Source: a virus
Length of the DNA stretch: 64,000 bases
Reading direction: 5' to 3' (one strand)
IMG/VR virus record: IMGVR_UViG_3300042397_000787
Shown here in pieces: positions 1,894 to 57,138 of this stretch. The notes beneath the pieces were generated by a model. The model was given only the letters and a program-made list of their open reading frames with translations. It made no database searches and was not told the origin of the DNA. Position numbers and translations under genes: made by a program. Numbering within the stretch: the first letter of the stretch is position 1; each line of letters starts with the position of its first letter.

Positions 1894-1894
1894 T

Positions 1895-4409: not shown

Positions 4410-4453
4410 TCAACTCTCCATAAAAAGAAATAATATAAAGTATATAGTATAGT

Positions 4454-5884: not shown

Positions 5885-5895
5885 TTTTTATAGCC

Positions 5896-40113: not shown

Positions 40114-40122
40114 TATATTATC

Positions 40123-40467
40123 CTATAGATTAAAATTGATACTCTCTCCGCAGCCGCAGCTACTAGAAGCAAGCGGTGCTTGTATTTCAATGACGCTACC
40201 AATAATATCAACTTTTTTATTAACGGTGCTACCTATAAGATATAGTTCCGACGGTCTATCCAGCCAGAACGTCCAATCATCATACTCTTGTGGAAAGTCA
40301 TCTTCTACGAGTTCGTCAGCACTCTTTACCAAATCCCACTTGTAACTGAACCCGGCACATCCACCTCCTGCGAGAGATAGTCGAACACCTAGTGCGTTAT
40401 TTGAAACTGAGACATTACGAAAATGCTCAAGTGCGGATTCCGTAAACTGTATGCGGTCTTTTATCAT
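40123..40467 (-). CDS. iscA: A-type Fe-S cluster carrier (IscA/SufA/ErpA, HesB family)
   Basis: IQFTESA, GVRLSLAGGGCAGFSY, SSCGCGESI. Start taken at ATG 40467, 5 nt after AATAAATA. Confidence 0.88.
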   Translation of the reverse strand: MIKDRIQFTESALEHFRNVSVSNNALGVRLSLAGGGCAGFSYKWDLVKSADELVEDDFPQEYDDWTFWLDRPSELYLIGSTVNKKVDIIGSVIEIQAPLASSSCGCGESINFNL

Positions 40468-40471
40468 CAAA

Positions 40472-41140
40472 CTATTTATTACGACTCGCTTCGAATAAAT
40501 CACGAGTTTCGATAAGTTTTTTGGCCCAGTTGTCGCGCTTTTCTACAAACACCTGAGGCTCATCGCCATCTACAGCAATCAAGATAACAAGAAAGGGAAC
40601 AGGAATACCAGTTCGTTCTTCATACATGATTGCATATGCAGCGGTCTGCATAAAGTAGGAACTGATATATTCCTTCTTCTTGGGCCGATTAGAAGTCTTA
40701 AAGTCGATTACGGCGCGAATACCATTGTATTCTCCGATACAGTCAACGCGACCAGCCATACGCAGGAAGTCGCTGTATAATGCCAGCTCTTGGCAGTGAA
40801 TGTTATCGATAGGTTCAAGAATTGACTTAAACTTAGTAAACATTTCCTTGTCGAGCAAGGACGCTCTCACGCTATCAAAATCGACTTCTTCATTCTTTAA
40901 ATATGCTTCGGTAAGTGTGTGTATTTTAGTACCGCGAGTAGAAGCCTGCTTAGAAATGCGGTCGGCTTCTTCTTCACCAACGCGCTCACGCCACTTGTTG
41001 ATGCCATCTTTATTCAGAACACCGAGAACAGTGGTAGCAGAGGGATATCCAACACCCGAGGCATTGACATAAACTCTGCTACCATCTTCTCTTGTTTCAT
41101 CTTGGGCGAAATCAGTATAATCATAGATCGTTTTAAACAT
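40472..41140 (-). CDS. PD-(D/E)xK exonuclease (Cas4/RecB-like phage exonuclease)
   Basis: YPSATTVL, WRERVGEEEA, RGT.IH, AGRVDCI, IDFKTS, YFMQTAAYA.MYEE. Confidence 0.85.
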   Translation of the reverse strand: MFKTIYDYTDFAQDETREDGSRVYVNASGVGYPSATTVLGVLNKDGINKWRERVGEEEADRISKQASTRGTKIHTLTEAYLKNEEVDFDSVRASLLDKEMFTKFKSILEPIDNIHCQELALYSDFLRMAGRVDCIGEYNGIRAVIDFKTSNRPKKKEYISSYFMQTAAYAIMYEERTGIPVPFLVILIAVDGDEPQVFVEKRDNWAKKLIETRDLFEASRNK

Positions 41141-42616: not shown

Positions 42617-42886
42617 TTAACTTTCTTCGATAGATTCACGTATGCAGCGTATATGCTCTTTTGCTACACTTGATATTATATCAGATTCCCTCGCAATGTC
42701 AAGACATTCTATAACTTCAATTGGGTCCATTTCTAATAAATCGTCCATCATGTTTCTTTCTGGTGTAACTCCGAAAGCATTGACGCAAAATAAAACAAGC
42801 TCCACATCGGCATCCGTATATAACGGTATGCGATAGCGTCTAGGTTCCTTACGAAATCTATCTGGAAACTGGAGGATGTTATTCAT
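42617..42886 (-). CDS. Hypothetical protein
   Basis: 89-aa ORF; AATAAATA lies 5 nt upstream of its ATG. Confidence 0.6.
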   Translation of the reverse strand: MNNILQFPDRFRKEPRRYRIPLYTDADVELVLFCVNAFGVTPERNMMDDLLEMDPIEVIECLDIARESDIISSVAKEHIRCIRESIEES

Positions 42887-42897
42887 GTTAATATTTA

Positions 42898-44331
42898 TTA
42901 GGAAAAGACTTTTACCATGTATTTCGCCTCGAAATCATCCGCGTCTTTGAAGTTATTCACCATGGGCATACCCTTGATATTAAGACTAGTATTCAATAGC
43001 ATTGGACAGCCGGTTTCTTCATACCACCTACTAAGAAGTTCATACAGTCCAGAGTGTTGCTCTTTTGTCACAGTTTGGACGCGACTTGTACCATCAGCAT
43101 GGACAATAGCAGGAAACTGATCAGGATATTTACATCTTGAAGTATATTGCATATAAGGGGAGTCTTCCCATGACATCTCAAAGTAGTCTCTCGCATGTTC
43201 TGCCAAAATAACTGGAGCGAATGGCCGAAATTTTTGACGCTTTTTAATGGCATTTACTTTATCCTTAATGTCATGTCCTCTTGGATCAGCTAGAAGGCTG
43301 CGATTACCTAATGCTCTAGGACCAAATTCAGCTTGACCATTTGCAACTCCTACTATACTAGCCTTATGCAATTCTGTCAAGAGTTTTTCTACTGGATATT
43401 CTCCTCCCATATCTGCACCTAGATATGGACCCTTCCAGTTCAATTTTTGTCTGTTGTTAGCTGCAATCGCACCCAAAGAACTACCCGAATCTCCAGGATT
43501 AGGCATAATCCAGACATTATCAAAATACTTTCGTGCAATATGATTTGCACTACAGTTTAACGCACAACCACCCATAAGAACGAGATTATTTTGTCCGGGG
43601 TCTTTCATTTTTGCTCGTATCAGAAGTTTTTCGAATTCTTCTTCATAGACTTTTTGAGTTGCCGCAGCGACACTATAAATGTCCAGGTCTCCATCATCTG
43701 GCCTCCACCAGCGACATCCACGATGCAGGTTCTCAGATTTCCAAAGATTTTTTACTTCATCATAATACTTTCCAGGATCACCATATGCTACCATTCCCAT
43801 TAAGATATATTCGTCTTCATTGGGCTTTAACCCAATTCTATCTGTCATAGCAGAATAGAACAGGCCCAAAGACTTGGGATAGTCCATAGACCATTTCTTT
43901 TTGAGTTTACTACCAGAACATTTCCAGATTGATGCAGTATCGAATTCCCCAATAGCATCAATAACAAGAGCGGTTGCATCATCATATGGCGAAGTGTAAA
44001 AGCCAGCAGCGGCATGTGACTCGTGGTGATAAGCAAACTCTACCGGAATATCTTTTAGACCAAAATGTTCAAGATACTGCCTGACACTAAATCGAATCAG
44101 TCCCTGACCGGCTAACAGTCTTCTCATTGCCCTAAGTTTAGGCTTTTCATACCAGTGAATTTTTTCTGGTTTGCCAAATTTCAAAGCAGCATGAATTAAA
44201 TCATCATTTAAGTCTTTGTCGTTTTTGATACCAGAATATCTTTCTGCATGGGAAGCAAACAAAATTTCATTGCCAGAAACAACAGTCAAAGACGCATCGT
44301 GTGCGGCCGCAGATATACCCCATTCAATCAT
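42898..44331 (-). CDS. Carbamoyltransferase (NodU/CmcH/TobZ family)
   Basis: HDAS, HAERYS..KND, HHESHAAAG, IDAIGE, SLGLFYS, GGCALNC, PGDSG, EFGPRALGNRS, FRPFAP, HADGTSRVQTV, LLNTSLN. Confidence 0.93.
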   Translation of the reverse strand: MIEWGISAAAHDASLTVVSGNEILFASHAERYSGIKNDKDLNDDLIHAALKFGKPEKIHWYEKPKLRAMRRLLAGQGLIRFSVRQYLEHFGLKDIPVEFAYHHESHAAAGFYTSPYDDATALVIDAIGEFDTASIWKCSGSKLKKKWSMDYPKSLGLFYSAMTDRIGLKPNEDEYILMGMVAYGDPGKYYDEVKNLWKSENLHRGCRWWRPDDGDLDIYSVAAATQKVYEEEFEKLLIRAKMKDPGQNNLVLMGGCALNCSANHIARKYFDNVWIMPNPGDSGSSLGAIAANNRQKLNWKGPYLGADMGGEYPVEKLLTELHKASIVGVANGQAEFGPRALGNRSLLADPRGHDIKDKVNAIKKRQKFRPFAPVILAEHARDYFEMSWEDSPYMQYTSRCKYPDQFPAIVHADGTSRVQTVTKEQHSGLYELLSRWYEETGCPMLLNTSLNIKGMPMVNNFKDADDFEAKYMVKVFS

Positions 44332-44339
44332 AAAGAATC

Positions 44340-45215
44340 CTATTTTGGTTTTATCAAATAATCATATATTTCGGTAGCAAACATTTTGTGGGCTTCGATG
44401 CCAGCATGTCCATAAGCACATCTTTCACCCTTATATTTATACATTGAGCCAACAGGTACAAAATTCAATCTATCAAATGTATCTTTATAAATCGTTTTTA
44501 GACGTTTAATTAAATCAATGTCTGTTTTTGTTTTTAAGAATTTTAAATTAGAATGCTGACTAGATGGATCATCAGGATAAGGAATGTAGGGATGCGTTTC
44601 TATAAAAATATGTGGTATATTTTCTTGGTGTAAAGCAGTTTGTATTGACCGTAAAATAATCATATTGTTCAGGGCCACTTGATATTCGTTATTAATTTGT
44701 ATCAGTGCATCATATAAGGTCTCTAGTTTATTTAATGTATGTCTATGAGACATAATAAAGTTGTGTAAATTACCTTCTTCATCTATGATCATATCTCTTA
44801 CAGGAGATGTCGCTCCTATAAATACCACATCTCCATCTTTGTAATAACCATTTGCTATATCCGACAGTATATTAAACAATATCTTTTTTTGAGAAGTGCC
44901 TGGTTCAGCAAAGTTCACATATTCCGTGGATAACATATCACTAAGATGTTTTGCGTATGAATATTGATTGCACAATTTCACATATCGGTCATTAGCTGAT
45001 TCCGAACACCTTGGATCTAACATGGCATAAACTTTACTGTATAGTTGTGCGTTCCAGTTGCTGCGCCCATATCTCATTTTCAAAGTATTGACTTCTTTGA
45101 GCGACATATCGAATATATCCGCATCTGCCAATTCGGACCCAGCAGTATTGGAACAGCCATAAAAAATTGTTCTTTTTATGTTGCATTCTTCAATATTATG
45201 GTATCGGATCGACAC
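44340..45215 (-). CDS. SGNH-hydrolase-like protein
   Basis: FYGCSNTAG (block I-like), NFAEPGTS (block II), C-terminal GHAG..AH. Confidence 0.5.
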   Translation of the reverse strand: MSIRYHNIEECNIKRTIFYGCSNTAGSELADADIFDMSLKEVNTLKMRYGRSNWNAQLYSKVYAMLDPRCSESANDRYVKLCNQYSYAKHLSDMLSTEYVNFAEPGTSQKKILFNILSDIANGYYKDGDVVFIGATSPVRDMIIDEEGNLHNFIMSHRHTLNKLETLYDALIQINNEYQVALNNMIILRSIQTALHQENIPHIFIETHPYIPYPDDPSSQHSNLKFLKTKTDIDLIKRLKTIYKDTFDRLNFVPVGSMYKYKGERCAYGHAGIEAHKMFATEIYDYLIKPK

Positions 45216-46329
45216 TTAGCTCATTCCACAAGTTATAAAATTTTATGTCTTTTTTAAGAAATTTTGTTTCTAATTCTTCAATCCAAGAATCTAATTGTAT
45301 CGTTTCATCTCTAACATTTGTAACTTCATTGTCGTCAACATGAGATAGAAGACTTTCTCTGATATTTACCAATTGAATGATATCAGAAGAAAAGTAGGAT
45401 TCATATTTGTCGATGCATATATCTAACTGATCTATTGCTAATTTTTTTATTTCAGGCGTAGCAGCAAAAATATTAAGTGAACGAGGAGAAGTCAATAGCT
45501 GAAATGTAATACCGTCATAATAGTCGCTGTAGTAAACATAATCACAGAATTCCACTAAACTTAAAGCACTGGGCAAACAATAGGTTGCATGAATAGTAAG
45601 TTTACTATCACTAAAATTTCTAATATATTTTACATTTTCCTCAAATGCATTCCATTTTGCACCATGTCTAATATATTCGAATTTGTCCTTAATAGTTTCA
45701 AAGCTAACTGCCCACTTAACTTTTTTTCCTAGAGTTAATAGCTTTTTAGCAACGTCATTGTTTTTAACATCTACCGCCATATTAGATAGGACATAGTAAA
45801 ACTTGTCAGGTAAAATATCAATTAAATCCAAATTTTGCTTCTGTAGTAGAGGCTCACCCCCTAGAAGTTGCACACTAAAAACGTCATCTGCATTCTGTTT
45901 TATAAACTCAAGCAATTGAGCATCGGTATCTTTCGAGTTCTTTTCAAAATTGTCTTGGAGTATAGATGCCCACTTAGAACTAAATTGTGAGTTACAGTAA
46001 ATACAACTTAGGTTACATGTGTTGTCCCATCTTAGATCCAGGGATGTCAATTGAAAATCTGTTGGTTCAGAGAAGTTTTTAGGATTAGTAATCTTTCGTT
46101 GTGATATACTTCCTCCTTTTTCTGCCAAATCACAATAAGAACAATAACTTTCTGGTTGGCCAAGTAGAATATTTTCACGAATTTTATTAGCCTTTTTCCC
46201 TAGTAACATCTCAGAAGGATTGTCTTTTTTTATGTTACCCAAAGGAAAAGAGCCAGCACAACAGAACTTAATATCTCCGTTGGTGTTGAGAAATAATCCA
46301 GTAAAAGGATATTCACAGAATTTATTCAT
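45196..46329 (-). CDS. Radical SAM enzyme with N-terminal SPASM/twitch-like Cys domain
   Basis: FCEYPF...FCC...CSYC; CNLSCIYC; LGGEP. Confidence 0.9.
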   Translation of the reverse strand: MNKFCEYPFTGLFLNTNGDIKFCCAGSFPLGNIKKDNPSEMLLGKKANKIRENILLGQPESYCSYCDLAEKGGSISQRKITNPKNFSEPTDFQLTSLDLRWDNTCNLSCIYCNSQFSSKWASILQDNFEKNSKDTDAQLLEFIKQNADDVFSVQLLGGEPLLQKQNLDLIDILPDKFYYVLSNMAVDVKNNDVAKKLLTLGKKVKWAVSFETIKDKFEYIRHGAKWNAFEENVKYIRNFSDSKLTIHATYCLPSALSLVEFCDYVYYSDYYDGITFQLLTSPRSLNIFAATPEIKKLAIDQLDICIDKYESYFSSDIIQLVNIRESLLSHVDDNEVTNVRDETIQLDSWIEELETKFLKKDIKFYNLWNELSVDPIP

Positions 46330-47191
46330 TAATCAAATACTTATATAGTTCTTCTGCCATCACTTGGTGTTCAGAAATTTTAGGATGACCGAAACCACAA
46401 TATTTTGGATGAGGCTCTAATGCATTCCAATTTCTACCATATTCATAACTCTTAAAATAATAATCAAGTTTCATGATGGAGGGCAAATCTTTACTTTTTT
46501 CTGCTATACGATACATATTTGATTGATAGAAAGTCGGATCTGAAATCCCTTTGAAAATATTATTGTAGTTAGTGGTGACATGAAAACTTTTTACTCTACC
46601 ATTTGTTCGATGGTAGAGATTATCAATATATTGAATTTGCCAGTAGGCATCCCAGCATATTTGATATGTGTTTCCCACGGTAGCTACATAATCTTTGTGA
46701 AATTTCGGCGAGGGCCAATCCGCATGATATGACAATAACGGCTTCTTCGTTATTCCATTCTCATTTAACCAAAACCATCTATTAGCACTTGTTAATCCAA
46801 ATAGAACTAAGTCTTTATCTCCGATTTTCCCAGTGGCCAGGTCTTCCTCATAGCAGTATATTGAATACTCCATGCCTGCTCCACCAAGCCCTCTGTTTAT
46901 CCAAGGAACGCCAAACTTATCTGCCAGCCAACGCGGCCATGCCACTTCTTTGGTACGGCGTATCTGTTCGCCCCAATCCCATCTGCCGTTCTCATCGAAT
47001 AAAGTTTTATCGGAACAATACTTCGGATTATAATATTTTGTATTCCACTCAGGACAGTATAATCCGCCCAAGTCAATTTTTGTTTTATCAACTTCGTATT
47101 CCGTTAACGCATCAACAAAAACATGATCTAGCGTTTCATCACCGGCAGTCATACTACAACCATAAGCAATGATTCTATCGAATTCAATCAT
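46322..47191 (-). CDS. SGNH-hydrolase-like protein
   Basis: AYGCSMTAG, NRGLGGAG, C-terminal GHP...H; paralogous to 44340-45215. Confidence 0.5.
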   Translation of the reverse strand: MIEFDRIIAYGCSMTAGDETLDHVFVDALTEYEVDKTKIDLGGLYCPEWNTKYYNPKYCSDKTLFDENGRWDWGEQIRRTKEVAWPRWLADKFGVPWINRGLGGAGMEYSIYCYEEDLATGKIGDKDLVLFGLTSANRWFWLNENGITKKPLLSYHADWPSPKFHKDYVATVGNTYQICWDAYWQIQYIDNLYHRTNGRVKSFHVTTNYNNIFKGISDPTFYQSNMYRIAEKSKDLPSIMKLDYYFKSYEYGRNWNALEPHPKYCGFGHPKISEHQVMAEELYKYLINE

Positions 47192-47291
47192 AAATGAACG
47201 GGTCCTGCTTTCGGATCTCAGCCAGTCTCTTTTTATACTTTTGCTTTAGAACATATGAATTATATAATCTTTGAATCCATTTAAACAACAT
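47184..47291 (-). CDS. Small basic peptide (35 aa, ...KKRLAEIRKQDPFIYD)
   Basis: Translated by hand: MLFKWIQRLYNSYVLKQKYKKRLAEIRKQDPFIYD; overlaps both neighbours and fills the gap exactly. Confidence 0.7.
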   Translation of the reverse strand: MLFKWIQRLYNSYVLKQKYKKRLAEIRKQDPFIYD

Positions 47292-48453
47292 AAATTTCGT
47301 CCCTATTATTATTTTTACCACATGCTTCTGAGCAAACATAAAGTTTACCGTCAGAGCAGCTTTTCTTCTTCCATGTATCTTTCAGATTTTGATAGTAAAG
47401 ACCATCGACAATTGTTTGAAAGTTGCTAGTATTTAGATTGATGGAGGAAGTTCTTGTTTGAGAATAATGCCATTTTTTAAATTGATATTCATCAATTCTA
47501 TGATAGCTATTATTAATCGCACTATCAAACCAACAACATGGTAGTAAATCGCCACTAGAATTGACATAAAATGTTTTCTTGTTATTAGAATTGCATTTAG
47601 GTTCGATTTCAGTATGCTCTAGTTCACTGGTATATTCTTTTGGACTTCTGAATATCTTTTTAAAATCTTCATGTTCGTCTTCTATGCTCATAAAGATATC
47701 TCTTACATCAACAGCCGTTTTATCCATTCGCTCTACATCATAGTTTCTAAAAACGATGTTTCTTTCGTTGTCATATTGAAAAGACACTCTATATTTTTCA
47801 GATGGTGCCTGAATTGCATATTCAAACTTACCGGTAGCATCATGAACTGGAATACTACTAACACTCTCAAATCCTAGCGGTCGTTTCGCAATAAATTTTG
47901 CTCCAACACTCTCGGCCAAACTTTTAGCGTAATTAACCTGATGTTCATTGTGGGCAAATACTAAAAATTCCCAGACAATATTCGCACCAGTGGTAGTAGC
48001 GGCAATAAAATTATTAAATGCCGTATCCCATTTGACATTTCTACGATATATATGGTTGGTGTCTTCAAGCCCATCTATACTAAAGACGATATCTCCCTTG
48101 TATAATTCTGGATTGAATAACGCGCCCATTTTTTGCCAGAAATCTTCATTTCTAGTGCCACCGTTTGTGTGAAGTCTTATCGCTGATTTAGGCGACACTT
48201 CTCGAATATAGGAAACAATTTCGTGTAGATCCCTACACAATGAGGGATCACCAGAACTTCCGCATAAAATCCACACTTCAACTTTTTCACATACTTCCGG
48301 CGTGAACCAAGTTTTAAATTTTTCTAGACTAATCTGAGATAATTCAATCGTGCTTTTAGTTTTCCCACCCATCCAGTTACGTGTGCATCCGGGGCATGCC
48401 GCATTACAGTTATTGGTGAGTTCGATGTGTAACTCGTAAATATTAGGAATCAT
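47281..48453 (-). CDS. Radical SAM enzyme with C-terminal SPASM/twitch domain
   Basis: HIELTNNCNAACPGC, FSIDGL, C...GDLLPCC...CSEAC. Confidence 0.9.
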   Translation of the reverse strand: MIPNIYELHIELTNNCNAACPGCTRNWMGGKTKSTIELSQISLEKFKTWFTPEVCEKVEVWILCGSSGDPSLCRDLHEIVSYIREVSPKSAIRLHTNGGTRNEDFWQKMGALFNPELYKGDIVFSIDGLEDTNHIYRRNVKWDTAFNNFIAATTTGANIVWEFLVFAHNEHQVNYAKSLAESVGAKFIAKRPLGFESVSSIPVHDATGKFEYAIQAPSEKYRVSFQYDNERNIVFRNYDVERMDKTAVDVRDIFMSIEDEHEDFKKIFRSPKEYTSELEHTEIEPKCNSNNKKTFYVNSSGDLLPCCWFDSAINNSYHRIDEYQFKKWHYSQTRTSSINLNTSNFQTIVDGLYYQNLKDTWKKKSCSDGKLYVCSEACGKNNNRDEIYVV

Positions 48454-49694
48454 CTATATGCTTCCAATTTTTTTGCCCAGTCTGGAAAGTATTCAGAAAA
48501 CTTTTGATTTTTATACTTATCATGTTTTTCTGAAATAACATAGAAATTGCTGAAATGTCTTTCCGAAGGCCTCTCTGACATTAAATGCGTAGTCACATTT
48601 CTTAGCGTATCAAAATTCCATTCATTAGCCTCTTTATATTCAGAAATATAAGATGTGATTTTTTGGATTAGCTCTAGCTTAATTTCTCTGGGCAAATTGG
48701 TTATCTTATAATGATCTGGCTTGTATAACATGTTATACCATATACCAGAATTCACTCCATATCTATTACGTATGAATCTATCAAACTCTGTGATGTGGTC
48801 AATATTAGCTATGCTTATAGTATAACAAAAACTAATCTTTATTGACGGATGTTTCCGACTTAACTCATGAAACTTGTCAATATTTGCAAGAACCACATCC
48901 CATTTTGCAGGATGTCTCATGTATTCAAATACCTGTTCTATTCCATCGATACTTAGTGCAATATCAGAGGTTTGAAACTGAGTGAAAACATCAATCTGTT
49001 TTTGACTAGGAAAAATTGTGCCATTTGTATTACAATGCAGGTACTGGGACTTACTTACCCCAGCTTCAATACACTTATGTAACATTTTCCATGGCTTAGT
49101 AATTAATAACGGTTCACCGCCATAAAAGTCAATTCTTTTAGATTGTAGAATCCATTGTTCAAATTCTTCCCACAATAATGGATTGTCATCCGAGTAACTT
49201 ATTCTCGCGGGCTCGAAGCGGGCAAGAAATTTTCTTTTATCTGCATATTCTTTTAAATATACATCATATTCTTCTGTTTGCCAAGCACTACTGCTATTTG
49301 AGTTGCACGTTCTACACCTTAAATTGCATGTATTACCAAACTTCATGTCAATATAGAACGGCGTTTCTGGGCCCATAACATCAGGATAATCCTGTTCATA
49401 TTTTTCCCACAAATGTTGCTCTCTCAGGCGCTTACTAATTTTTCCTCCAGCATTTTCTTCTTCCCAACAAGCAATACAATTGGGATGCTGAATGCCAGCA
49501 TCTAATGCTTCCAAAATTTCTCGTCTGTGATTGCTTTTCCAAAACTGACTAGGCTTATGCGTATTGAACCGCATCTCCTTGCCATCATCGTCTAATAATA
49601 CGTCTCTTGCCATGCAGCATGTTTTAGCATTGCCCATAGTCTCGGTTGCAATTCCATATTTGGCAGTCAGACAAGTTAATTTTTTGGTAGACAT
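48450..49694 (-). CDS. Radical SAM enzyme with N-terminal SPASM/twitch-like domain
   Basis: TCC...CIACW; CNLRCRTC; YGGEP; NTNGT; SIDG. Confidence 0.9.
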   Translation of the reverse strand: MSTKKLTCLTAKYGIATETMGNAKTCCMARDVLLDDDGKEMRFNTHKPSQFWKSNHRREILEALDAGIQHPNCIACWEEENAGGKISKRLREQHLWEKYEQDYPDVMGPETPFYIDMKFGNTCNLRCRTCNSNSSSAWQTEEYDVYLKEYADKRKFLARFEPARISYSDDNPLLWEEFEQWILQSKRIDFYGGEPLLITKPWKMLHKCIEAGVSKSQYLHCNTNGTIFPSQKQIDVFTQFQTSDIALSIDGIEQVFEYMRHPAKWDVVLANIDKFHELSRKHPSIKISFCYTISIANIDHITEFDRFIRNRYGVNSGIWYNMLYKPDHYKITNLPREIKLELIQKITSYISEYKEANEWNFDTLRNVTTHLMSERPSERHFSNFYVISEKHDKYKNQKFSEYFPDWAKKLEAYR

Positions 49695-50887
49695 TTTTCA
49701 GCCCAAGGATAGGTTTCAAACACATTCTGTTTTCTGATCTTATCAAGTAACTGTTGTTTCATAACAAAATTATTTTGAATAATAGGATTATGTAGATTAT
49801 CGGTTCTGGATTCCAGGTATTTGATGATAAATTCTACTGCTTGTTTATTTAAAGCATTAGTATTTTTCTGAACCTCAAAATATTCCCGCAATTCGTTCAA
49901 TCTAAGATTATAATTATCTTCGGGCATAACATCAGGCTGCAAAAAATCTGGACTATTAACAGGAATAACGGAACAGTGAATTCCAACCGTATCAAAGAAA
50001 CGAATCAAGTCTGCCATTGTATCCAAAGATAAGTTTTGTAATGTTGTGCTTATGGTAGCATGAATGTTTTGATGTTCTTGCATAATGGTTTTGTAAGTCA
50101 ATAAGTTCTTTTCGATTTTTTTCCACCTACCAGGAAATCTAATATATTCAAACGTTGACTTATAACCATCAATACTAAGGCCGAGATGAACTTCTCTAAA
50201 CTGTTTCCAGTAGTCGATAAATTCATACGGGTTGTTCATTCCGTTGGTATTATAGTGTAGCGCAATGTTTTTTGCCGCACCAGTCTCGCATAAAAATTGT
50301 AGTAGCTTAAGGTTTTCATCAATGATTAGCGGTTCACCGCCTATCAAATAAATTTGTTTGATAGTATGAATATGTTGTGACAATACCTCATTGATATCTA
50401 CGGCATCAATCCACTTTGTATCCGACCAACTAGACTGATAATATTGTTTTGCTTCCGGGTGTTCATCTACTTCCTTACGAATCAGAGAACTACTGAACGG
50501 CCCACACATTCTGCATTTAAGATTGCACTTGGCATCCAAATCAAATTCAACTTTTACAATACCAATAGGCTCTGGACTTTTTTCAGCCACAATCCTATCA
50601 TATTCTTTACGAAAGACTGAATTCGCATAATCTCTAAAACTCTTATTACCAGAGTCTTCGATATTCCAGCATCGTGAGCAAAGTTCTGGCTTATTCCCCT
50701 TTAACATTTCATCTCGCAGATACGACATGGTTTTTGTTTTCAGTAATGTATTCACATCATAGTTTTCTTTGTCTTTGATGTTTTCTTGAACTTGTTTTGA
50801 GCCAATCGCATTGCAACAAGGCCTAAATTCCCCGTGTGAGCCAATGCTCAAATTCATCCAGGGATATACGCAAATAGTATCTGACAT
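49676..50887 (-). CDS. Radical SAM enzyme with N-terminal SPASM/twitch-like domain
   Basis: CVYPW...RPCC...CSRCW; CNLKCRMC; GGEP; SIDG. Confidence 0.9.
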   Translation of the reverse strand: MSDTICVYPWMNLSIGSHGEFRPCCNAIGSKQVQENIKDKENYDVNTLLKTKTMSYLRDEMLKGNKPELCSRCWNIEDSGNKSFRDYANSVFRKEYDRIVAEKSPEPIGIVKVEFDLDAKCNLKCRMCGPFSSSLIRKEVDEHPEAKQYYQSSWSDTKWIDAVDINEVLSQHIHTIKQIYLIGGEPLIIDENLKLLQFLCETGAAKNIALHYNTNGMNNPYEFIDYWKQFREVHLGLSIDGYKSTFEYIRFPGRWKKIEKNLLTYKTIMQEHQNIHATISTTLQNLSLDTMADLIRFFDTVGIHCSVIPVNSPDFLQPDVMPEDNYNLRLNELREYFEVQKNTNALNKQAVEFIIKYLESRTDNLHNPIIQNNFVMKQQLLDKIRKQNVFETYPWAEKCLPKN

Positions 50888-52137
50888 TATTGTACCTCGT
50901 TTACGTGATTTCTATTATTACCCAATTCACCCTGATCCAGTTTATTGAATTCTAAACCACAACAAGAACTGCATTGATGACTGCGCATCGAACTACCACG
51001 CTCGAAACTCATCGGTAGATATCTTTGAAAATATGCAGTATTAATAATTTCTTCTAAAGTATGCTTATGAAGATCCAGTGAGTCCATACCACCATTAAGT
51101 TCGATCATTTTAAGCGAGTTATCATTAGGATTTGACCATTGCGCACCAAATCTCCATGGTTCTCCGCCTAGAAAACAACAAGGGAAAACATGACCTGTGG
51201 CAGACAAGAACACTTCGTTGTTTTTCTGGTGTTCATTAATCTTTGCTCGACACATAATACCCAAAGAGTTGTGTTTAATCTTAATTGTTTCGTTGGAGTC
51301 GGGATCATGATTTACTAAAAACTCTTCTGTGTTTTCAGGCATCAATCTACCAAATTCTTCATTTGTGATATATTGTGGAATAAGATTCTTTATTGCTTTT
51401 GCAAAAACAACATCATTTTGATGCTTTAGTCTCTCTTCTTCCGGTTGCTTGATGTAGTATGAGGAACCATCTGGATTTCTAACTCTGTAGTACCCTCTTC
51501 CGGCTGCATCATATCCTTGCCATCTAGTTGTTCTTTTAATATTGAAAGTTCTAAAATTCAATTCTTTTGCGATGGCCTTGGCTTCGTCAATTTGATGCTC
51601 ATTAAAATCAAACGCGATAAAGTCCCATTTAGCTATGCCGCCTGCGGCAGTAAATGCTTTCATATTAGCATGAATTTTAGCAAAATTGGTATTTCTTCTG
51701 TATAGGTGATTTGTGTCCCATAAGCCATCAACAGAAAAAGTTACACCATCATCTCGTTGATTTTCTCCGTTGAGAATTTGACCTAGTTCTTTCCACCAAC
51801 CTTCCGATCTAGCACTAGCATTTGTGTGCATTACTAATGAGAGATATGGGTTATTTTCTCGCAAATACTTGAATATTGGCAAAGTATCTTTAGCAGTAAT
51901 AGGATCTCCATAATTCCCACATGCATACACCCGTCTAAGTTGTGAAACAAACGGAATAGGAAACCATTCTTTGAATTGTTCTAGAGAAATATCTGTTAGA
52001 TTTAGAAGAGGATTGATTTCTTTACCCTGATTGATATAACGAGGACACATAGGACATCCTGCATTACATTTATTAGATAATTCAATGTGCATCGCAGTAA
52101 TATTGCGCCACGATTTGTATAGTGGTTCAACTTGCAT
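50887..52137 (-). CDS. Radical SAM enzyme with C-terminal SPASM/twitch domain
   Basis: HIELSNKCNAGCPMC, CGNYGDP, FSVDGL, C...VFPCC...CSSCC. Confidence 0.9.
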   Translation of the reverse strand: MQVEPLYKSWRNITAMHIELSNKCNAGCPMCPRYINQGKEINPLLNLTDISLEQFKEWFPIPFVSQLRRVYACGNYGDPITAKDTLPIFKYLRENNPYLSLVMHTNASARSEGWWKELGQILNGENQRDDGVTFSVDGLWDTNHLYRRNTNFAKIHANMKAFTAAGGIAKWDFIAFDFNEHQIDEAKAIAKELNFRTFNIKRTTRWQGYDAAGRGYYRVRNPDGSSYYIKQPEEERLKHQNDVVFAKAIKNLIPQYITNEEFGRLMPENTEEFLVNHDPDSNETIKIKHNSLGIMCRAKINEHQKNNEVFLSATGHVFPCCFLGGEPWRFGAQWSNPNDNSLKMIELNGGMDSLDLHKHTLEEIINTAYFQRYLPMSFERGSSMRSHQCSSCCGLEFNKLDQGELGNNRNHVNEVQ

Positions 52138-53533
52138 TTTCAGTTAATTCCTTGCACATGTGGTAAAAATCCTTGTATTCAGGAAAAGTTTCTATTAGAT
52201 TAAGCCCAGGAGAACGTTTGTCATATTCGGAAAAGAACTTATAGAAGTCCTTGCGACCGGTTTCGATTAATTCAGGAGTAATCCTAGGTCCACCAGTCAC
52301 AAAGTAATTTCTTACTCGCTTTAGCTTTTCCCATTCATGTTCATTGAATCCAAACTCCATTCCGTATGGAGTAATACGCTGCTTGATGAAATCAAGGTCC
52401 TCATCGATATATGATACCCATTCTGGCGGAAGAAGATTAATCATCCAATGTGGTGGTTCTTTTAGATACGGCGTATCAAATCCAATACGCTCTTTACCCC
52501 ACTTATCGCGAAGTTCTAATATCTTTTCTAAGAATGGACGGAAAGAAGCAACACACAGAATGTTGTAGGTACACATAAAACTAATGTTTGCTTTTGGAAC
52601 AATTCTTAGATATGTTTCTACGTTCTGCAAGAAAAGATCCTGATCCAGACCTCTGCGCATATATTCTGCCTTCGGTCCCCACGATTCTAGACTTGTGTAA
52701 AGTTTGAAATCCTTAATTTTCTTATTTTCGATCATCGACTTTACTGTTTCAGCAAACTTTGTCACTCGATTATTCGAAACGCCAAGATTACTATTCAAAT
52801 TCAATTCAAGATGCTGAGTACCATCACCCTCTTCAATCAATTTAAACAACTTCATTGTGTTTGAGTTGATAAGTGCTTCGCCGCCCGTCAGGCGAAGAAC
52901 ACGGAGATCCTTCTTTAGGTCAGGCCACCACTTCCAAAATGCCTCGATGTAGGGATTGTATTCGTCATCTCTATACACCTTACTAGTTTCTAGATATTCA
53001 ATCCCATACTGATTATAACTAATGTCATAATTACCATGCTTGCGGATTTCATCTTCCCATAGTGAAGATGCTTGTGGACAGCAATAACCACACTTAAAAT
53101 TACAACCTGCACCAAAACTAACTTCAAGGAAGTAAGGATTGTAGTCTGCATCCCATGCCGTATTCTTAATCATTTCAGTTTCAGCGGCGGCATCTATCCA
53201 ATGACTTGCATTATGAAACATTCTATCGCTAAAATTTTCGCCAGGAAGATTTTCTACGTTCCAGCAGTAGTAACATTCTTCTGGACGTCCGCCCTCAAGC
53301 ATAATTTTACGCTGTTCTTTCTTCCACTTCGTATTATGAAGTGCAGAAGGATTTTCAGCAATTTCTTCTAAAGGAATATGACGAGGGCGAGGATGATAAC
53401 AACTGTGATTGTCGCCCATATGAAGATACAGAGTCTCGTGGCGCCATTTTTGCAGACAAAATCCATTACCCACTGTATTCAGTGTATCTCGGACTTTTTT
53501 TACCTTATTAATATATTCTAAATTATCACTCAT
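52127..53533 (-). CDS. Radical SAM enzyme (CxxKW/HSCxHP subfamily)
   Basis: FCLQKW...HSCYHP...CYYCW; CNFKCGYC; TGGE. Confidence 0.9.
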   Translation of the reverse strand: MSDNLEYINKVKKVRDTLNTVGNGFCLQKWRHETLYLHMGDNHSCYHPRPRHIPLEEIAENPSALHNTKWKKEQRKIMLEGGRPEECYYCWNVENLPGENFSDRMFHNASHWIDAAAETEMIKNTAWDADYNPYFLEVSFGAGCNFKCGYCCPQASSLWEDEIRKHGNYDISYNQYGIEYLETSKVYRDDEYNPYIEAFWKWWPDLKKDLRVLRLTGGEALINSNTMKLFKLIEEGDGTQHLELNLNSNLGVSNNRVTKFAETVKSMIENKKIKDFKLYTSLESWGPKAEYMRRGLDQDLFLQNVETYLRIVPKANISFMCTYNILCVASFRPFLEKILELRDKWGKERIGFDTPYLKEPPHWMINLLPPEWVSYIDEDLDFIKQRITPYGMEFGFNEHEWEKLKRVRNYFVTGGPRITPELIETGRKDFYKFFSEYDKRSPGLNLIETFPEYKDFYHMCKELTENAS

Positions 53534-54962
53534 TAATCAGGCCTTCGCATTCTTCAATAAATTCTATCATTTCTGGAAATGTTTCTTTGAGGTTAGTCTT
53601 ACGCCGCTTATCATGTTCTCTAAAATGCATAGTGAAGTTTTTCTTATGAAGAATTTCTTCATCTTTAGGCATTGGTTCAACTGCCCAGTCATAAAGGCGC
53701 TTTACTTTGTCAATTTCATAATCTTTGAAACCCTTAAATCGATTTGATACGGTCTCTTTGTTTTGCTCCATAAATTCGATACTATTTAGCAAAGGCTGCA
53801 ACATCTCTTTAGATGCCAACTTTAGACTCAGCCACTTAGGATCAGTAAGCATAGGAGTATCAAACCAAACCAACTGTCTATCCGTATTATACTCTTGACG
53901 CAATCTTAAAATATTTTGAAAGTATGTCATCCAATTCGGTAAACATAGAATGTTACATGTCACAATAAAGGTTAGAGAATGCTTTTCACCTTCACTCAAA
54001 AATTGTGTGATGTTTTTATAAAGAACATCAAAATCCATACCTGTCCGAATATACTCTGCCTGTTTTCCCCAACTATCGAGACTACAGAAGAGCATGAAGT
54101 GATCGATTGCATCCTGATCTGTGATTTCTTTCAAGTCATCCATAAACTTTTGCCACTGTCCTTTTGGAGGGCAACAATTGCTAGTAATACTTAGCGTCAA
54201 ATCTGGTTTTGGATTTTTCTTGACATGGTCAAAAATCTTAAAAGTATTCTTATCCATCAAAGGCTCGCCGCCTGTCATACGAAATGTCTTTAACTTGTCA
54301 TATACAGTAGGAAACCACTCCCAGAATGCAACAAGATATGGATTTACAGGAGAATTATCCGGCACCCAACCCTGTTCTTTCATCCAACCATCGTCATTAT
54401 GAGTTCTATCGAAAAGCCGATATGGACCATGCTCTTTAATTTCTTTATGCCACTCTGTAGACAAATGAGGGGAACAATATGTGCATTTTAAATTGCAGGC
54501 CTGATTAAAGTTGACTTCCAAATATTTGGGGGCAGGATTTCCTTCAAACCCAACTGCTAACGCTTCATCGATAATACCCGGCGAGTTAACATCAAAACTG
54601 CGATACGCTCTATCGCTCATATTACCAGTATCTTCGATATCCCAACAGAAAGAGCATTCCGACGGTCTTTCGCCTAGTAACATCTTCTTTCGCTGTTCTT
54701 TCTTGTATTTTGTGTTATGTAAAGCACCTGGATCTGCCGCAAGTTCCTCTAAAGGAACCTTATGGGTTCTAGGATGATAGCAACTATGAGTTCTGCCAGT
54801 AGGAATATGAATGCTGACATTAAACCACTTTGCAAGACAAAAGGAAGGACTTACTTTGTTTAAGCCTTCCAGCATATCCTTAGTGTTGTCAAAGTAAACA
54901 CTCTTGTATGCTCCATCTAGATCGGCAGTTACTTCATCACCGCGTTGATTTTCATCGTTCAT
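53526..54962 (-). CDS. Radical SAM enzyme (CxxKW/HSCxHP subfamily)
   Basis: FCLAKW...HSCYHP...CSFCW; CNLKCTYC; TGGEP. Confidence 0.9.
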   Translation of the reverse strand: MNDENQRGDEVTADLDGAYKSVYFDNTKDMLEGLNKVSPSFCLAKWFNVSIHIPTGRTHSCYHPRTHKVPLEELAADPGALHNTKYKKEQRKKMLLGERPSECSFCWDIEDTGNMSDRAYRSFDVNSPGIIDEALAVGFEGNPAPKYLEVNFNQACNLKCTYCSPHLSTEWHKEIKEHGPYRLFDRTHNDDGWMKEQGWVPDNSPVNPYLVAFWEWFPTVYDKLKTFRMTGGEPLMDKNTFKIFDHVKKNPKPDLTLSITSNCCPPKGQWQKFMDDLKEITDQDAIDHFMLFCSLDSWGKQAEYIRTGMDFDVLYKNITQFLSEGEKHSLTFIVTCNILCLPNWMTYFQNILRLRQEYNTDRQLVWFDTPMLTDPKWLSLKLASKEMLQPLLNSIEFMEQNKETVSNRFKGFKDYEIDKVKRLYDWAVEPMPKDEEILHKKNFTMHFREHDKRRKTNLKETFPEMIEFIEECEGLINE

Positions 54963-56296
54963 AGGGTATTACACCATTCTAAAAATTCTTTGAATTCTGG
55001 AAATACTTCCACTAGGTTGCTTTTGCTTCGTCTATCGTATTCTGGGAAAAACTTAGCAAAATCTCGTCTGGCATTTAGACGATACGTATCATCAATTGCA
55101 TGTTCATCGTTATAAAAGTAATCTCGAATACGTAACATCTTTTGACGTTCTATATCAGTAAACCATTCAGACTCCTGAATGAATTTCAAGTCAGAATCGA
55201 TATACTTACCGAAATCTTTAGTTAGAATATTGATTGTCCAGTGTGGCGGTTCTTTAAGATGTGGAATATCAACAATAATTCTATCTTTGCCCCATTTTTT
55301 TCTAAGTTCCACAATATAATCTAAGAAGTCTCTGAAATACGGTACTACAAGATTATTATACGTTACCATAAAGGACATGTAAGCAGTTGGGACCAATTCT
55401 AGAACGGTGTCAACATTCTTCTTAAACAACTCGTAGTCCAGACCACGCCGAATGTATTCAGCTTGTTTACCGGTGCATTCAATACTGGTAAAACAACGAA
55501 AATTCTTAATCTTATTGTTATCTATAAGTTCTCGAACAGTATTACTTACTTCAACAACTTTTCGATTGGTTACACCGAGATTGGTATTAATCTGCAACAT
55601 AAGGTCAGAATTACCCTCGTCACGCAACGTCTCTAACAGACGATATGTATTGGTGGTCATCAGAGGTTCACCACCAGTAATACGGAAAATCTTCAACTCT
55701 TTTTTTAGTTCTGGCCACCATTTCCAAAATGCTTCCACATAGGGATTATATTCTTTCTCAGAATATATTTTCTTTCCTCTAGTTCCATATGGACTGTCTG
55801 TTAGATCATAGTCACCAAATTCTTCAAGTTCTTGTTCCCACATAGAAGAAAAAGATGCAGTGCAATATCCACACTTGAAATTACACGCATTACTAAAACT
55901 AATTTCCATGTTGTATGGATTTACGTTCTGATCCCATGGAGTATTGCGTAGAAGTTCGGTTTCTTCATTAAGATCAAAAATAGGATTAATTTTATCAATA
56001 TTCTTCAATACGCGGTCGCTGACCTTACCAATCTTTTCAATATTCCAACAATATGAACAACCAGGCGGTTTACCACCAGAAAGCATATACTTTCTAGTGA
56101 ATTTCTCATAAAGTGTGTTGTGAAGAGCGGCTGGATCTTCCTCAATTTCTTCCAGCGGAATAATTCTAGGACTAGGATGATGGCAGCTATGCTTGTCACC
56201 CGAATGCAGATACAGCGCAAGCCATCTCCACTTCTGTGGACAAAATCCCTCGCCTACAGAATTTAGTGTGGTTAAAGCATCATCTATTTCACTCAT
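54959..56296 (-). CDS. Radical SAM enzyme (CxxKW/HSCxHP subfamily)
   Basis: FCPQKW...HSCHHP...CSYCW; CNFKCGYC; TGGEP. Confidence 0.9.
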   Translation of the reverse strand: MSEIDDALTTLNSVGEGFCPQKWRWLALYLHSGDKHSCHHPSPRIIPLEEIEEDPAALHNTLYEKFTRKYMLSGGKPPGCSYCWNIEKIGKVSDRVLKNIDKINPIFDLNEETELLRNTPWDQNVNPYNMEISFSNACNFKCGYCTASFSSMWEQELEEFGDYDLTDSPYGTRGKKIYSEKEYNPYVEAFWKWWPELKKELKIFRITGGEPLMTTNTYRLLETLRDEGNSDLMLQINTNLGVTNRKVVEVSNTVRELIDNNKIKNFRCFTSIECTGKQAEYIRRGLDYELFKKNVDTVLELVPTAYMSFMVTYNNLVVPYFRDFLDYIVELRKKWGKDRIIVDIPHLKEPPHWTINILTKDFGKYIDSDLKFIQESEWFTDIERQKMLRIRDYFYNDEHAIDDTYRLNARRDFAKFFPEYDRRSKSNLVEVFPEFKEFLEWCNTL

Positions 56297-56691
56297 CTAC
56301 GCATCCTTGAGATTTCTTCCATCTGATCTTGATTAATTACTGGTACTGCATTAGATTTATGCATCGTGGCAATACCCCTGATCAGAGTACCAGTATATTC
56401 ATTAGGCTTCTTAGCAAACGTCATACCACCGCTATCTACAGATTTATAACGTTCGCGATGATCGGATTTATACGCTGCTGGCATGGGAGTGCCACGCAGC
56501 TTAGGCTTATACTTACCTTGACGGTATTGCACATATTCGTCAAAGGTCTTAGTCGAAGAACCAAGACGTTTCATCTGCTTATTGTAGTCTACCCAGTCCT
56601 GAGCATACTTACCAGTGATTCCCTTATTTACAGTCTTTCTATTTTTGGTATTTGTTGTAGTATAAGCTGGGCCCAACAGATGCATTGACAT
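56293..56691 (-). CDS. Conserved-looking phage hypothetical protein (GIATMHKSNAVPV)
   Basis: GAGGAG RBS before ATG 56691; first gene of the leftward operon. Confidence 0.7.
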   Translation of the reverse strand: MSMHLLGPAYTTTNTKNRKTVNKGITGKYAQDWVDYNKQMKRLGSSTKTFDEYVQYRQGKYKPKLRGTPMPAAYKSDHRERYKSVDSGGMTFAKKPNEYTGTLIRGIATMHKSNAVPVINQDQMEEISRMRR

Positions 56692-56712
56692 AATAATCTC
56701 CTCAAGACTTTT

Positions 56713-56784
56713 ACAATACAACATATAGCCAAGATTGTCAATAGAAAAATAATGGTTGACATTTGGTCGCGAATCGTCTATAAC
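56713..56784. promoter_or_regulatory. Divergent sigma70-type promoters (TTGACA-17-TATTGT on -, TTGACA-17-TATAAC on +)
   Basis: - strand: -35 at 56741-56736, -10 at 56718-56713. + strand: -35 at 56756-56761, -10 at 56779-56784. Confidence 0.75.
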
Positions 56785-57001: not shown

Positions 57002-57138
57002 TGAACACCGAAGAACTAGAACAACACTTCCTTCAGATGGAGAAGGAACTATTCGAACAAGAAGTTACTTCGAAGTCGCCCGATACACGCCGTCCCAATC
57101 TTTCGGAGGCGATACCTGAAACTCTTCAATACGGCTAA
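57001..57138 (+). CDS. Possible small hypothetical protein (45 aa)
   Basis: TAATG coupling and AGGAAGG RBS, but overlaps the 3' end of the cyclase gene on the opposite strand. Confidence 0.35.
   Translation: MNTEELEQHFLQMEKELFEQEVTSKSPDTRRPNLSEAIPETLQYG

Follow-up and report, generated by a model that had tools for sequence, protein, structure and literature searches.

IMG/VR virus record IMGVR_UViG_3300042397_000787 carries, on the minus strand of the stretch analyzed here, an operon that joins eight radical S-adenosylmethionine (rSAM) enzyme genes to an O-carbamoyltransferase gene, two SGNH-fold paralogues, a gene for a 35-amino-acid (aa) peptide, and a gene for a 132-aa protein. The window, meaning the whole stretch of 64,000 nucleotides (nt), makes up 63.8 kb at the right-hand end of a viral contig that measures 117,295 bp and has an estimated completeness of 71%. 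The source is an uncultured freshwater T4-like myophage. The contig contains genes of the baseplate (wedge and hub), a gene for the tail-tube cap, and gp32, and its marker genes are pelagimyophage-like. The operon spans positions 56691 to 42898 and is composed of the following 13 genes, given with their scores against the NCBIfam model NF033640 and with the ratio of nonsynonymous to synonymous substitution (dN/dS) where these apply.

56293..56691, minus strand: g02, basic protein of 132 aa, first operon gene, no Pfam match
54959..56296, minus strand: g03, rSAM enzyme with N-terminal twitch domain (N-twitch), 445 aa, NF033640 292 bits
53526..54962, minus strand: g04, N-twitch rSAM, 478 aa, NF033640 313 bits, dN/dS 0.029
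52127..53533, minus strand: g05, N-twitch rSAM, 468 aa, NF033640 280 bits, dN/dS 0.033
50887..52137, minus strand: g06, rSAM with C-terminal twitch/SPASM-like domain, 416 aa, CxxxCxxC at residue 24, dN/dS 0.033
49676..50887, minus strand: g07, N-twitch rSAM, 403 aa, NF033640 320 bits, dN/dS 0.044
48450..49694, minus strand: g08, N-twitch rSAM, 414 aa, NF033640 291 bits, dN/dS 0.042
47281..48453, minus strand: g09, rSAM with C-terminal twitch-like domain, 390 aa, CxxxCxxC at residue 16, dN/dS 0.073
47184..47291, minus strand: 35-aa micro-protein ending RKQDPFIYD, overlapping the g09 stop and the g10 start, dN/dS 0.11
46322..47191, minus strand: g10, divergent SGNH-fold protein, 289 aa, AlphaFold2 predicted local distance difference test score (pLDDT) 94, no Pfam match
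45196..46329, minus strand: g11, N-twitch rSAM, most divergent copy, 377 aa, NF033640 203 bits, dN/dS 0.071
44340..45215, minus strand: g12, SGNH-fold paralogue of g10 (27% identity), 291 aa, dN/dS 0.18
42898..44331, minus strand: g13, NodU/CmcH/TobZ-family O-carbamoyltransferase, 477 aa, both Pfam domains, dN/dS 0.062

The genes are translationally coupled, with junctions between −20 and +8 nt: in order, −4, −4, −8, −11, −1, −19, and −4 nt, an overlap on each side of the peptide gene, and −8, −20, and +8 nt. A first-pass annotation of the sequence had proposed 13 co-oriented, coupled genes; the coupling stands, and the 13th gene is now the open reading frame (ORF) at 47184-47291, as the apparent 89-nt gap between g09 and g10 is a 35-aa ORF overlapping both neighbors. 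The start of the first gene also changed, in that a 190-aa ORF with a GTG start was replaced by the 132-aa ORF that begins with ATG at 56691 behind a GAGGAG ribosome-binding site; the end of g02 runs 4 nt into g03. G+C content is lower in the cassette (0.34 to 0.38) than in its flanks (0.40 to 0.45), as expected for a variable island. A Megablast search with the cassette found no match in 50,697 phage records.

Each of the eight rSAM ORFs contains one CxxxCxxC motif, and the Pfam Radical_SAM model matched the 117-kb contig in exactly these eight places and nowhere else, in agreement with the eight intact rSAM genes originally counted. Six of the eight (g03, g04, g05, g07, g08, and g11; 203 to 320 bits) passed the 170-bit cut-off of NF033640 (N_Twi_rSAM, twitch domain-containing radical SAM protein), with the full model matched. 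The three rSAM architectures described in the first-pass annotation reduce to two, since its "CxxKW/HSCxHP" and "N-terminal twitch-like" groups both belong to this one family. We found no literature on NF033640 or on phage twitch rSAMs, and the family is a catalogue entry only. Moreover, no solved structure was close in sequence to the rSAM genes, and the long rSAM forms showed no informative fused domain.

The N-twitch family is marked by four Cys that lie ahead of the rSAM core. In the numbering of g07, C6, C24, C70, and C73 precede core residues C121, C125, and C128 (alignments A1, A6, and A7) and are invariant, together with the GGE motif, across 16 diverse members; g03 has its equivalents at C19, C38, C80, and C83, with CxxxCxxC at 138 and a dN/dS of 0.010. 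GGE, the SAM-binding motif, is invariant in the six N-twitch genes, and outside the core the four N-terminal Cys were the sole invariant residues in sets of 16 to 42 diverse members. When the N-terminal domain was turned into a profile, its one PDB match below an E value of 0.5 was to residues 164 to 238 of BtrN (PDB 4M7T/4M7S), the 2-deoxy-scyllo-inosamine dehydrogenase of butirosin biosynthesis and founding twitch rSAM; in this marginal match (E = 0.02) the four Cys aligned with BtrN C169, C187, C232, and C235. Cys spacing is nearly equal in the two proteins (18/45-46/3), but the BtrN twitch is C-terminal whereas the twitch here precedes the core, the cores are not specifically related, and BtrN works alone rather than in arrays of eight. 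An AlphaFold2 model of g04 (pLDDT 93.6) showed an ordinary rSAM partial TIM barrel. Its core was nearest to SkfB (Z 13.6), BlsE (Z 13.2), and MoaA in a flat list that also held SuiB, viperin, anSME, and DesII within Z 11 to 13.6, and no neighbor stood out.

The other two rSAMs, g06 and g09, carry their extra Cys behind the core. Both fell below the NF033640 cut-off and are not members: the g06 core was closest to model positions 109 to 268, its top NCBIfam match (47 bits), and g09 scored 37 bits on what was its second-best NCBIfam model (best, 43 bits). The two proteins are 27% identical, and g06 clusters in a tree with g09 and with members from related loci L010, L017, and L025. C-terminal Cys are found at residues 296, 320, 321, 389, 392, and 393 of g06 and at 287, 306, 307, 366, 374, and 378 of g09, but only four or five of the six are kept across relatives, which fits one auxiliary cluster, as in a twitch domain, and not two. 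The label "SPASM-like" was accordingly dropped for this pair: neither protein has the seven or eight Cys with which a SPASM domain binds two auxiliary clusters, the Pfam SPASM model gave a borderline match to g06 (22.6 bits; cut-off 21.5) and none to g09, and the anSME score lay far under its cut-off. In hhalign, the C-terminal domain of g06 and g09 aligned weakly with the twitch domain of the N-twitch proteins (E = 1.2e-4, probability 56%), which hints that the two rSAM types of the operon may be circular permutations, with the twitch after the core in one and before it in the other.

The rSAM paralogues are old and constrained. Pairwise identities among the eight range from 20 to 49%, the upper value being that of g03 and g05. 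In a quick maximum-likelihood tree of the eight rSAMs and 59 relatives, g04 and g08 fell in orthogroups common to most cassettes, g03 and g05 formed a local pair, g07 and g11 sat on long branches, and g06 and g09 had a clade of their own. The most conserved orthogroup is that of g04, whose clade is present in nearly every related cassette at 42 to 62% identity (99% support); that of g08 is likewise widespread (13 rows, 99% support), g05 is 77% identical to L010:7248, and g07 has 786 database relatives. Measured against the syntenic relative L087 (80 to 92% DNA identity), dN/dS was 0.01 to 0.07 for the rSAMs, 0.06 for the carbamoyltransferase, 0.16 to 0.18 for the SGNH genes, and 0.11 for the peptide. 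These ratios led us to reject decay into pseudogenes, and paralogue identity and the tree led us to reject recent tandem duplication. We conclude that the operon genes are, by their pattern of substitution, working genes with separate roles.

Membership in known rSAM families was also rejected. The best scores were 37 bits for MoaA (cut-off 284), 34 bits for QueE (cut-off 260), 22 bits for NrdG (cut-off 131), and 31 bits for viperin (cut-off 180), and anSME gave 19 to 21 bits against a cut-off of 349. No rSAM gene thus reached the cut-off of any of the housekeeping families MoaA, QueE, and NrdG, membership in which would have spoken against the first-pass annotation, and all eight lay far under the cut-offs of the NCBIfam models for maturases of ribosomally synthesized and posttranslationally modified peptides (RiPPs). 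We conclude that the multistep tailoring pathway originally proposed holds up, in that its paralogues are intact, old, constrained, and in no housekeeping family.

The last gene, g13, encodes a NodU/CmcH-type carbamoyltransferase, as originally called; both Pfam domains and the PDB homologues bear this out. Carbam_trans_N (PF02543) scored 127 bits (cut-off 24) over profile positions 126 to 344 only, Carbam_trans_C (PF16861) scored 180 bits (cut-off 27), and the PDB matches were GdmN (3.5e-51), NovN (4.3e-51), and TobZ (3e-36). Most solved relatives of g13 act on sugar or sugar-like hydroxyls. An HHESH motif, which we take to be metal binding, is visible in the g13 sequence. That g13 is NodU itself was rejected, as it scored 145 bits against the equivalog cut-off of 1000 for NF041651. 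The protein shares about 50% identity with its counterpart in related cassettes and about 25 to 32% with the Nol-like genes that cyanomyophages and pelagimyophages carry. It differs from TobZ, NovN, GdmN, NodU, NolO, and CmcH in its size (477 aa, versus 576 to 702 aa for the solved enzymes) and in being paired with a PFIY peptide that has no membrane anchor.

That peptide is the 35-aa micro-protein, and it follows the carbamoyltransferase from locus to locus. A tail of the form [KR]x[DS]PFIY plus at most one residue is kept in at least 17 loci while the N terminus varies. The peptide gene always lies just upstream of the carbamoyltransferase gene, or of an SGNH gene and the carbamoyltransferase gene, and it is missing wherever the carbamoyltransferase is missing. 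DUF5989 proteins are small proteins that accompany carbamoyltransferases (SxtK type), and the viral peptide resembles them in adjoining a carbamoyltransferase gene, in a basic amphipathic N terminus, and in PFIY near the C terminus. It differs in lying upstream rather than downstream of that gene and in having no hydrophobic span and no transmembrane helix, so that it does not qualify as DUF5989; the DUF5989 model (PF19451) matched nothing in the genome at E ≤ 10. Two Bacteroidota loci (L065 and L069) encode a DUF5989-type peptide ending APFIYSLF directly after a carbamoyltransferase of 30% identity. A literature search on the DPFIY peptide found nothing. We note that the cultured jumbo phage RsoM2USA (MG752970) has an unannotated 36-aa ORF ending RKQDPFIYK between RsoM2USA_201 and _200 (L082:6038-6148), in the order SGNH-peptide-SGNH-carbamoyltransferase seen in the window.

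A small conserved ORF within an operon of tandem rSAM paralogues, which are common in RiPP clusters, raises the alternative of RiPP or protein maturation, in which the rSAMs would cross-link, epimerize, or oxidize the 35-aa peptide or a phage or host protein and the carbamoyltransferase would cap a hydroxyl. The best structural and profile neighbors of the rSAMs, which include SkfB, SuiB, anSME, and the sactipeptide maturase CteB, speak for such chemistry. However, the peptide co-occurs with the carbamoyltransferase and not with the rSAMs, being absent from L010, L016, and L034, which are rSAM arrays without a carbamoyltransferase, and it lies upstream of every carbamoyltransferase seen, whereas the classical DUF5989 peptides (APFIYSLF) come after the carbamoyltransferase in bacterial loci. 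Moreover, only its C-terminal, docking-like tail is conserved and the N terminus is free, and no Pfam domain for a RiPP recognition element (RRE)/PqqD, a protease, or a transporter was found, although a divergent RRE is possible. We consider RiPP or protein maturation quite unlikely and conclude that the 35-aa peptide is likely, from its sequence and distribution, a partner of the carbamoyltransferase and not a RiPP precursor.

The two SGNH-like proteins of the first-pass annotation were recovered by structure prediction. Among PDB entries, the top 50 Foldseek matches of the g10 model were all SGNH/GDSL enzymes, including acetyl-xylan esterases, TesA, and PatB. G11, S13, and H269 of g10 are invariant in 52 relatives, g12 keeps the Gly-x-Ser and His, and the g10/g12 family comprises 398 representative clusters. 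No Pfam SGNH model matched this family, 2 of the 52 relatives weakly matched DUF6071, and g02, g10, g12, and the 35-aa peptide gave nothing useful in Pfam at E ≤ 10. Compared with the SGNH carbohydrate esterases and O-acetyltransferases (Axe2/CE2, PatB, and TesA), g10 has the same fold (Foldseek probability 1.0), and its family keeps the Gly-x-Ser nucleophile and catalytic His, but TM-scores were only 0.35 to 0.44 on query length, g10 has long insertions, and the usual Asn of block III and Asp of block V are not evident in the family. We conclude that the modeled fold, the Gly-x-Ser nucleophile, and the His place g10 and g12 in the SGNH/GDSL hydrolase superfamily.

Relatives of the SGNH genes connect the family to proteins that are presumably glycosyltransferase-like. 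In four independent clusters an SGNH domain is fused to DUF6492 in proteins of about 590 aa (40 to 46 bits; cut-off 22.9), and one of these relatives also weakly matched Glyco_tranf_2_4; we take DUF6492 to be a glycosyltransferase-like family of the GT-A clan. Homologous SGNH genes flank the peptide and carbamoyltransferase genes in other cassettes (hhalign 99%, 8.7e-18). Only F12, and in part F50, matched the SGNH profile among the unknown families of related cassettes; families F1, F2, F5, F6, F8, F9, F11, and F19 showed no profile similarity to SGNH or DUF6492 templates, and F2 had only a weak GT2 lead (Atlas).

Related arrays were found at 13 IMG/VR loci and, in a genome scan with alignment A2, at 54 loci in species-representative genomes. 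The bacterial arrays were mainly in Bdellovibrionota, Bacteroidota, and Acidimicrobiia. Common to many viral cassettes are a g04-type rSAM and several further orthogroups, together with an SGNH gene, the peptide, and a carbamoyltransferase whose identity to g13 is about 50%. The close relative L010 carries in the same genomic slot seven rSAMs without the carbamoyltransferase, SGNH genes, peptide, and g11, from which it follows that the capping module is optional. L087, the closest relative, has an extra 371-aa gene with no Pfam match (L087:14427-15542) directly after the carbamoyltransferase, absent from the window, which points to turnover by insertion and deletion even between near-identical cassettes. 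Two contigs of 183 and 148 kb from a metagenome-assembled genome of Haliscomenobacter (L027 and L028) carry two full viral-type cassettes running from a g04-type rSAM to the peptide and carbamoyltransferase; these may be jumbo-phage contigs that were binned with the genome, or integrated elements.

Reduced versions are found in cultured phages. Ralstonia phage RsoM2USA carries SGNH-rSAM-SGNH-peptide-SGNH-carbamoyltransferase and a second g04-type rSAM, all annotated as hypothetical except for the unannotated peptide (the rSAMs are RsoM2USA_202 and _349, and the carbamoyltransferase is _199). Vibrio phages K566 and K567 have four genes with the N-twitch Cys pattern, which in K566 belong to the stretch _0303 to _0308. 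The neighbor proteins in K566 did not match the viral families; one of them weakly matched the glycosyltransferase WbbM (E = 0.0038). Radical SAM cassettes of pelagimyophages have been mentioned in passing (Zaragoza-Solas et al. 2020, PMC7029224) and placed in a tail-fiber "host recognition cluster"; the paper neither assigns them to a family nor describes their anatomy or function. Those phages are of the same kind, T4-like with a curli csgF/G operon nearby; unlike their cassettes, the one described here lies between a CHASE2 cyclase gene with its neighboring, putatively curli-type operon on one side and phoH on the other.

Sugar genes recur beside the arrays. On a Bdellovibrio chromosome, genes for a UDPG/GDP-Man dehydrogenase, an epimerase, and DegT adjoin three rSAMs; a 337-kb contig has an NAD-epimerase/dehydratase gene, five rSAMs, the peptide, the carbamoyltransferase, and DegT; viral locus L019 has a UDPG-dehydrogenase/methyltransferase gene between its rSAMs and carbamoyltransferase; and in L086 DegT and an epimerase lie beside the array. 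Within the L019 cassette a Methyltransf_24 domain is fused to UDP-glucose dehydrogenase, and in the window a Methyltransf_24 gene and an IscA-type gene (39547-40503, minus strand) lie 2.4 kb downstream of the cassette.

Other bacterial neighborhoods bring in an alternative in which the rSAMs functionalize C-H bonds of a noncarbohydrate small molecule or lipid (isoprenoid, fatty acyl, or polyketide-like) as an oxygen-independent counterpart of PhyH. PhyH is the top neighbor in bacterial loci (14 of 110), a WelO5-type halogenase is also present, GdmN, the best PDB match of g13, acts on a polyketide, and the tetraether lipid (GDGT) synthase Tes was among the weak rSAM matches. Conversely, the viral cassettes and their surroundings contain no lipid or polyketide gene, the rSAMs of the PhyH-rich loci share only about 25% identity with the window rSAMs, and the SGNH-DUF6492 fusion and nucleotide-sugar neighbors point to sugars. 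We regard a lipid or other noncarbohydrate substrate as very unlikely. Distant N-twitch rSAMs were seen among runs of 270- to 350-aa genes in three Bacteroidota loci (L058, L062, and L065); we take these runs to be PhyH paralogues, in a tally that names no individual genes. The pairing of PhyH with rSAMs may represent aerobic and anaerobic C-H functionalization of one substrate.

Expression signals bear on a further alternative, DNA or nucleotide hypermodification. The sole promoter candidate before the operon is the following.

56713..56741, minus strand: sigma-70-like promoter candidate, TTGACA-17-TATTGT, 10/12 match

The candidate lies about 20 nt before the GAGGAG site and ATG at 56691, and its position thus fits the promoter called in the first-pass annotation; its 10/12 match does not add to this, because sites at this level are not commoner than in shuffled sequence (62 in the region versus 56.8 ± 7.4 in shuffles). 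The promoter is plausible only by position. The T4-type late motif TATAAATA was not found upstream of the cassette, and five minus-strand copies occur within the structural-gene region of the window. We note that the only coding-strand TATAAATA in the cassette (44434-44441, minus strand) sits within g12, some 100 nt ahead of the first codon of the carbamoyltransferase gene, and could be due to chance or be a late promoter for the carbamoyltransferase alone.

In DNA or nucleotide hypermodification, the product would be a base or nucleotide, finally carbamoylated, that protects phage DNA or counters nucleotide-based host defense. An early-type promoter candidate with no late TATAAATA before the operon would suit that role, as would a cassette in a replication-proximal variable region near gp32, PhoH, and a PD-(D/E)XK nuclease and rSAM cores that resemble MoaA, viperin, QueE, and BlsE. 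The MoaA, QueE, NrdG, and viperin scores are nevertheless far under their cut-offs, and no thymidylate-synthase or dCMP-hydroxymethylase homologue was found on the fragment. Moreover, cassette content varies in the same slot (L010 is without the carbamoyltransferase, SGNH genes, and g11), which is unusual for an essential modification, and the genes linked in relatives are nucleotide-sugar enzymes. We consider hypermodification of DNA or nucleotides unlikely.

The sugar-gene neighbors, the DUF6492 fusions, the twitch match to BtrN only, and the carbamoyltransferase relatives together strengthen a glycan or sugar reading. Of the three substrate classes originally offered, the glycan/sugar class has gained most support, while hypermodified DNA and protein or peptide have been weakened. 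We therefore favor, at about an even chance of its being right, an operon by which a carbohydrate-like substrate undergoes radical redox editing, O-carbamoylation, and (de)acylation. What the analysis shows is that the genes are intact and under selection, to which families and folds they belong, and that their homologues elsewhere recurrently neighbor sugar genes; from this we infer what class of substrate is used, which reaction each enzyme carries out, and what the pathway is for.

The substrate would be carbohydrate-like and polyhydroxylated, such as a nucleotide sugar, a glycan residue, or an aminocyclitol-type small molecule; BtrN oxidizes a secondary alcohol of an aminocyclitol. Each rSAM paralogue would use its CxxxCxxC cluster and SAM to abstract hydrogen from one particular C-H position of the substrate. 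A second [4Fe-4S] cluster, held in a BtrN-type four-Cys twitch domain placed ahead of the core in six enzymes and behind it in two, would accept or give back an electron, and the net result could be conversion of a secondary alcohol to a ketone, epimerization, or a dehydration-type rearrangement, with the distinct old orthogroups providing site or step specificity. The two SGNH-fold proteins may remove or transfer O-acyl groups, and the carbamoyltransferase, with the PFIY-tailed 35-aa peptide docked on it, would use carbamoyl phosphate and ATP to place a carbamoyl group on a free hydroxyl. The purpose may be host-surface remodeling or decoration of a phage component.

Several findings weigh against a carbohydrate-like substrate. 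The fold neighbors of g04 mix peptide maturases (SkfB, SuiB, and anSME) with sugar or nucleotide enzymes (BlsE, MoaA, viperin, and DesII), so the fold leaves the substrate class undecided; the BtrN match of the N-terminal domain is marginal (E = 0.02); and no characterized or solved NF033640 member was found. Some bacterial arrays of the Bdellovibrio type lie among housekeeping genes with no sugar gene nearby, and the commonest Bacteroidota neighbor, the PhyH dioxygenase (14 of 110 neighbors, in 14 loci), is not sugar specific. Finally, the 117-kb fragment, which is about 71% complete, has no recognizable nucleotide-sugar gene, with neither an epimerase nor a GT2 match found on it, and the ORFs at 97-6378 had no Pfam match, leaving a protein-language-model lead as the sole glycosyltransferase link. 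That lead concerns a gene at 555-1250 (plus strand) which, with three paralogues just upstream (G000 51798-54727), forms a tandem set of 225- to 278-aa proteins. The four paralogues had no Pfam or PDB match but lay near viral GT8/Nucleotid_trans clusters in the language-model search (0.95; 149 to 153 shared features), and one of them had weak similarity to a gene from the rSAM cluster that Vibrio phage K566 carries. The glycosyltransferases that had been called at 1 to 4 kb matched no Pfam family or PDB sequence, and the GT8/Nucleotid_trans lead for 555-1250 is their sole support.

The cassette is flanked upstream by a CHASE2 adenylate cyclase gene and downstream by phoH, a PD-(D/E)XK nuclease gene, and an IscA-type Fe-S carrier gene. 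The cyclase gene lies directly upstream (57065-59125, minus strand; CHASE2 plus class III adenylate/guanylate cyclase) and also precedes the rSAM cassette of phage L010. The carrier gene is placed as follows.

40123..40503, minus strand: IscA-type Fe-S carrier, context gene, Pfam Fe-S_biosyn, 1.2e-9

The carrier may supply clusters to the eight rSAM enzymes. Flavodoxin, ferredoxin, methylthioadenosine/S-adenosylhomocysteine (MTA/SAH) nucleosidase, PhyH, and thymidylate synthase were looked for on the 117-kb fragment and not found. The first operon gene, g02, is 65% identical to the first gene of the L010 cassette (dN/dS 0.13); its C-terminal third is also kept in myophages without a cassette, such as PhiW-14 and ACP17, and g02 is therefore probably not specific to the cassette. 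An exact match to the sigma-70 consensus (TTGACA-16-TATAAT, extended TG) was found inside the 89-aa gene g14 (42675-42702, minus strand), just upstream of a 182-aa gene (42062-42610) with a weak Pyr_excise (DenV-like) match. This site may be the start of the next transcription unit.

Going beyond editing of a carbohydrate-like substrate in general, we tentatively propose, as a doubtful but specific idea, that the N-twitch rSAMs are new glycan- or sugar-editing radical enzymes, each orthogroup of which would oxidize, epimerize, or deoxygenate another carbon. Aquatic phages would then carry interchangeable sets that write a combinatorial, oxygen-independent code on host or virion carbohydrate, with the SGNH, peptide, and carbamoyltransferase genes as an optional capping module. 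If true, such a code could control adsorption and superinfection.

Twitch rSAMs perform some of the hardest steps of sugar and antibiotic biosynthesis. The N-twitch family has hundreds of database relatives, and in phages that infect abundant aquatic bacteria it forms arrays in which as many as eight distinct, strongly conserved paralogues stand together; reduced versions in cultured carriers, Ralstonia phage RsoM2USA and Vibrio phages K566 and K567, make it open to experiment. Identity of the substrate would explain why a carbamoyltransferase and a PFIY micro-protein recur side by side, a pairing that bacteria show in the form of DUF5989. It would moreover give a sizeable part of viral "dark matter" a chemical function and could reveal how phages remodel cell surfaces or their own particles.

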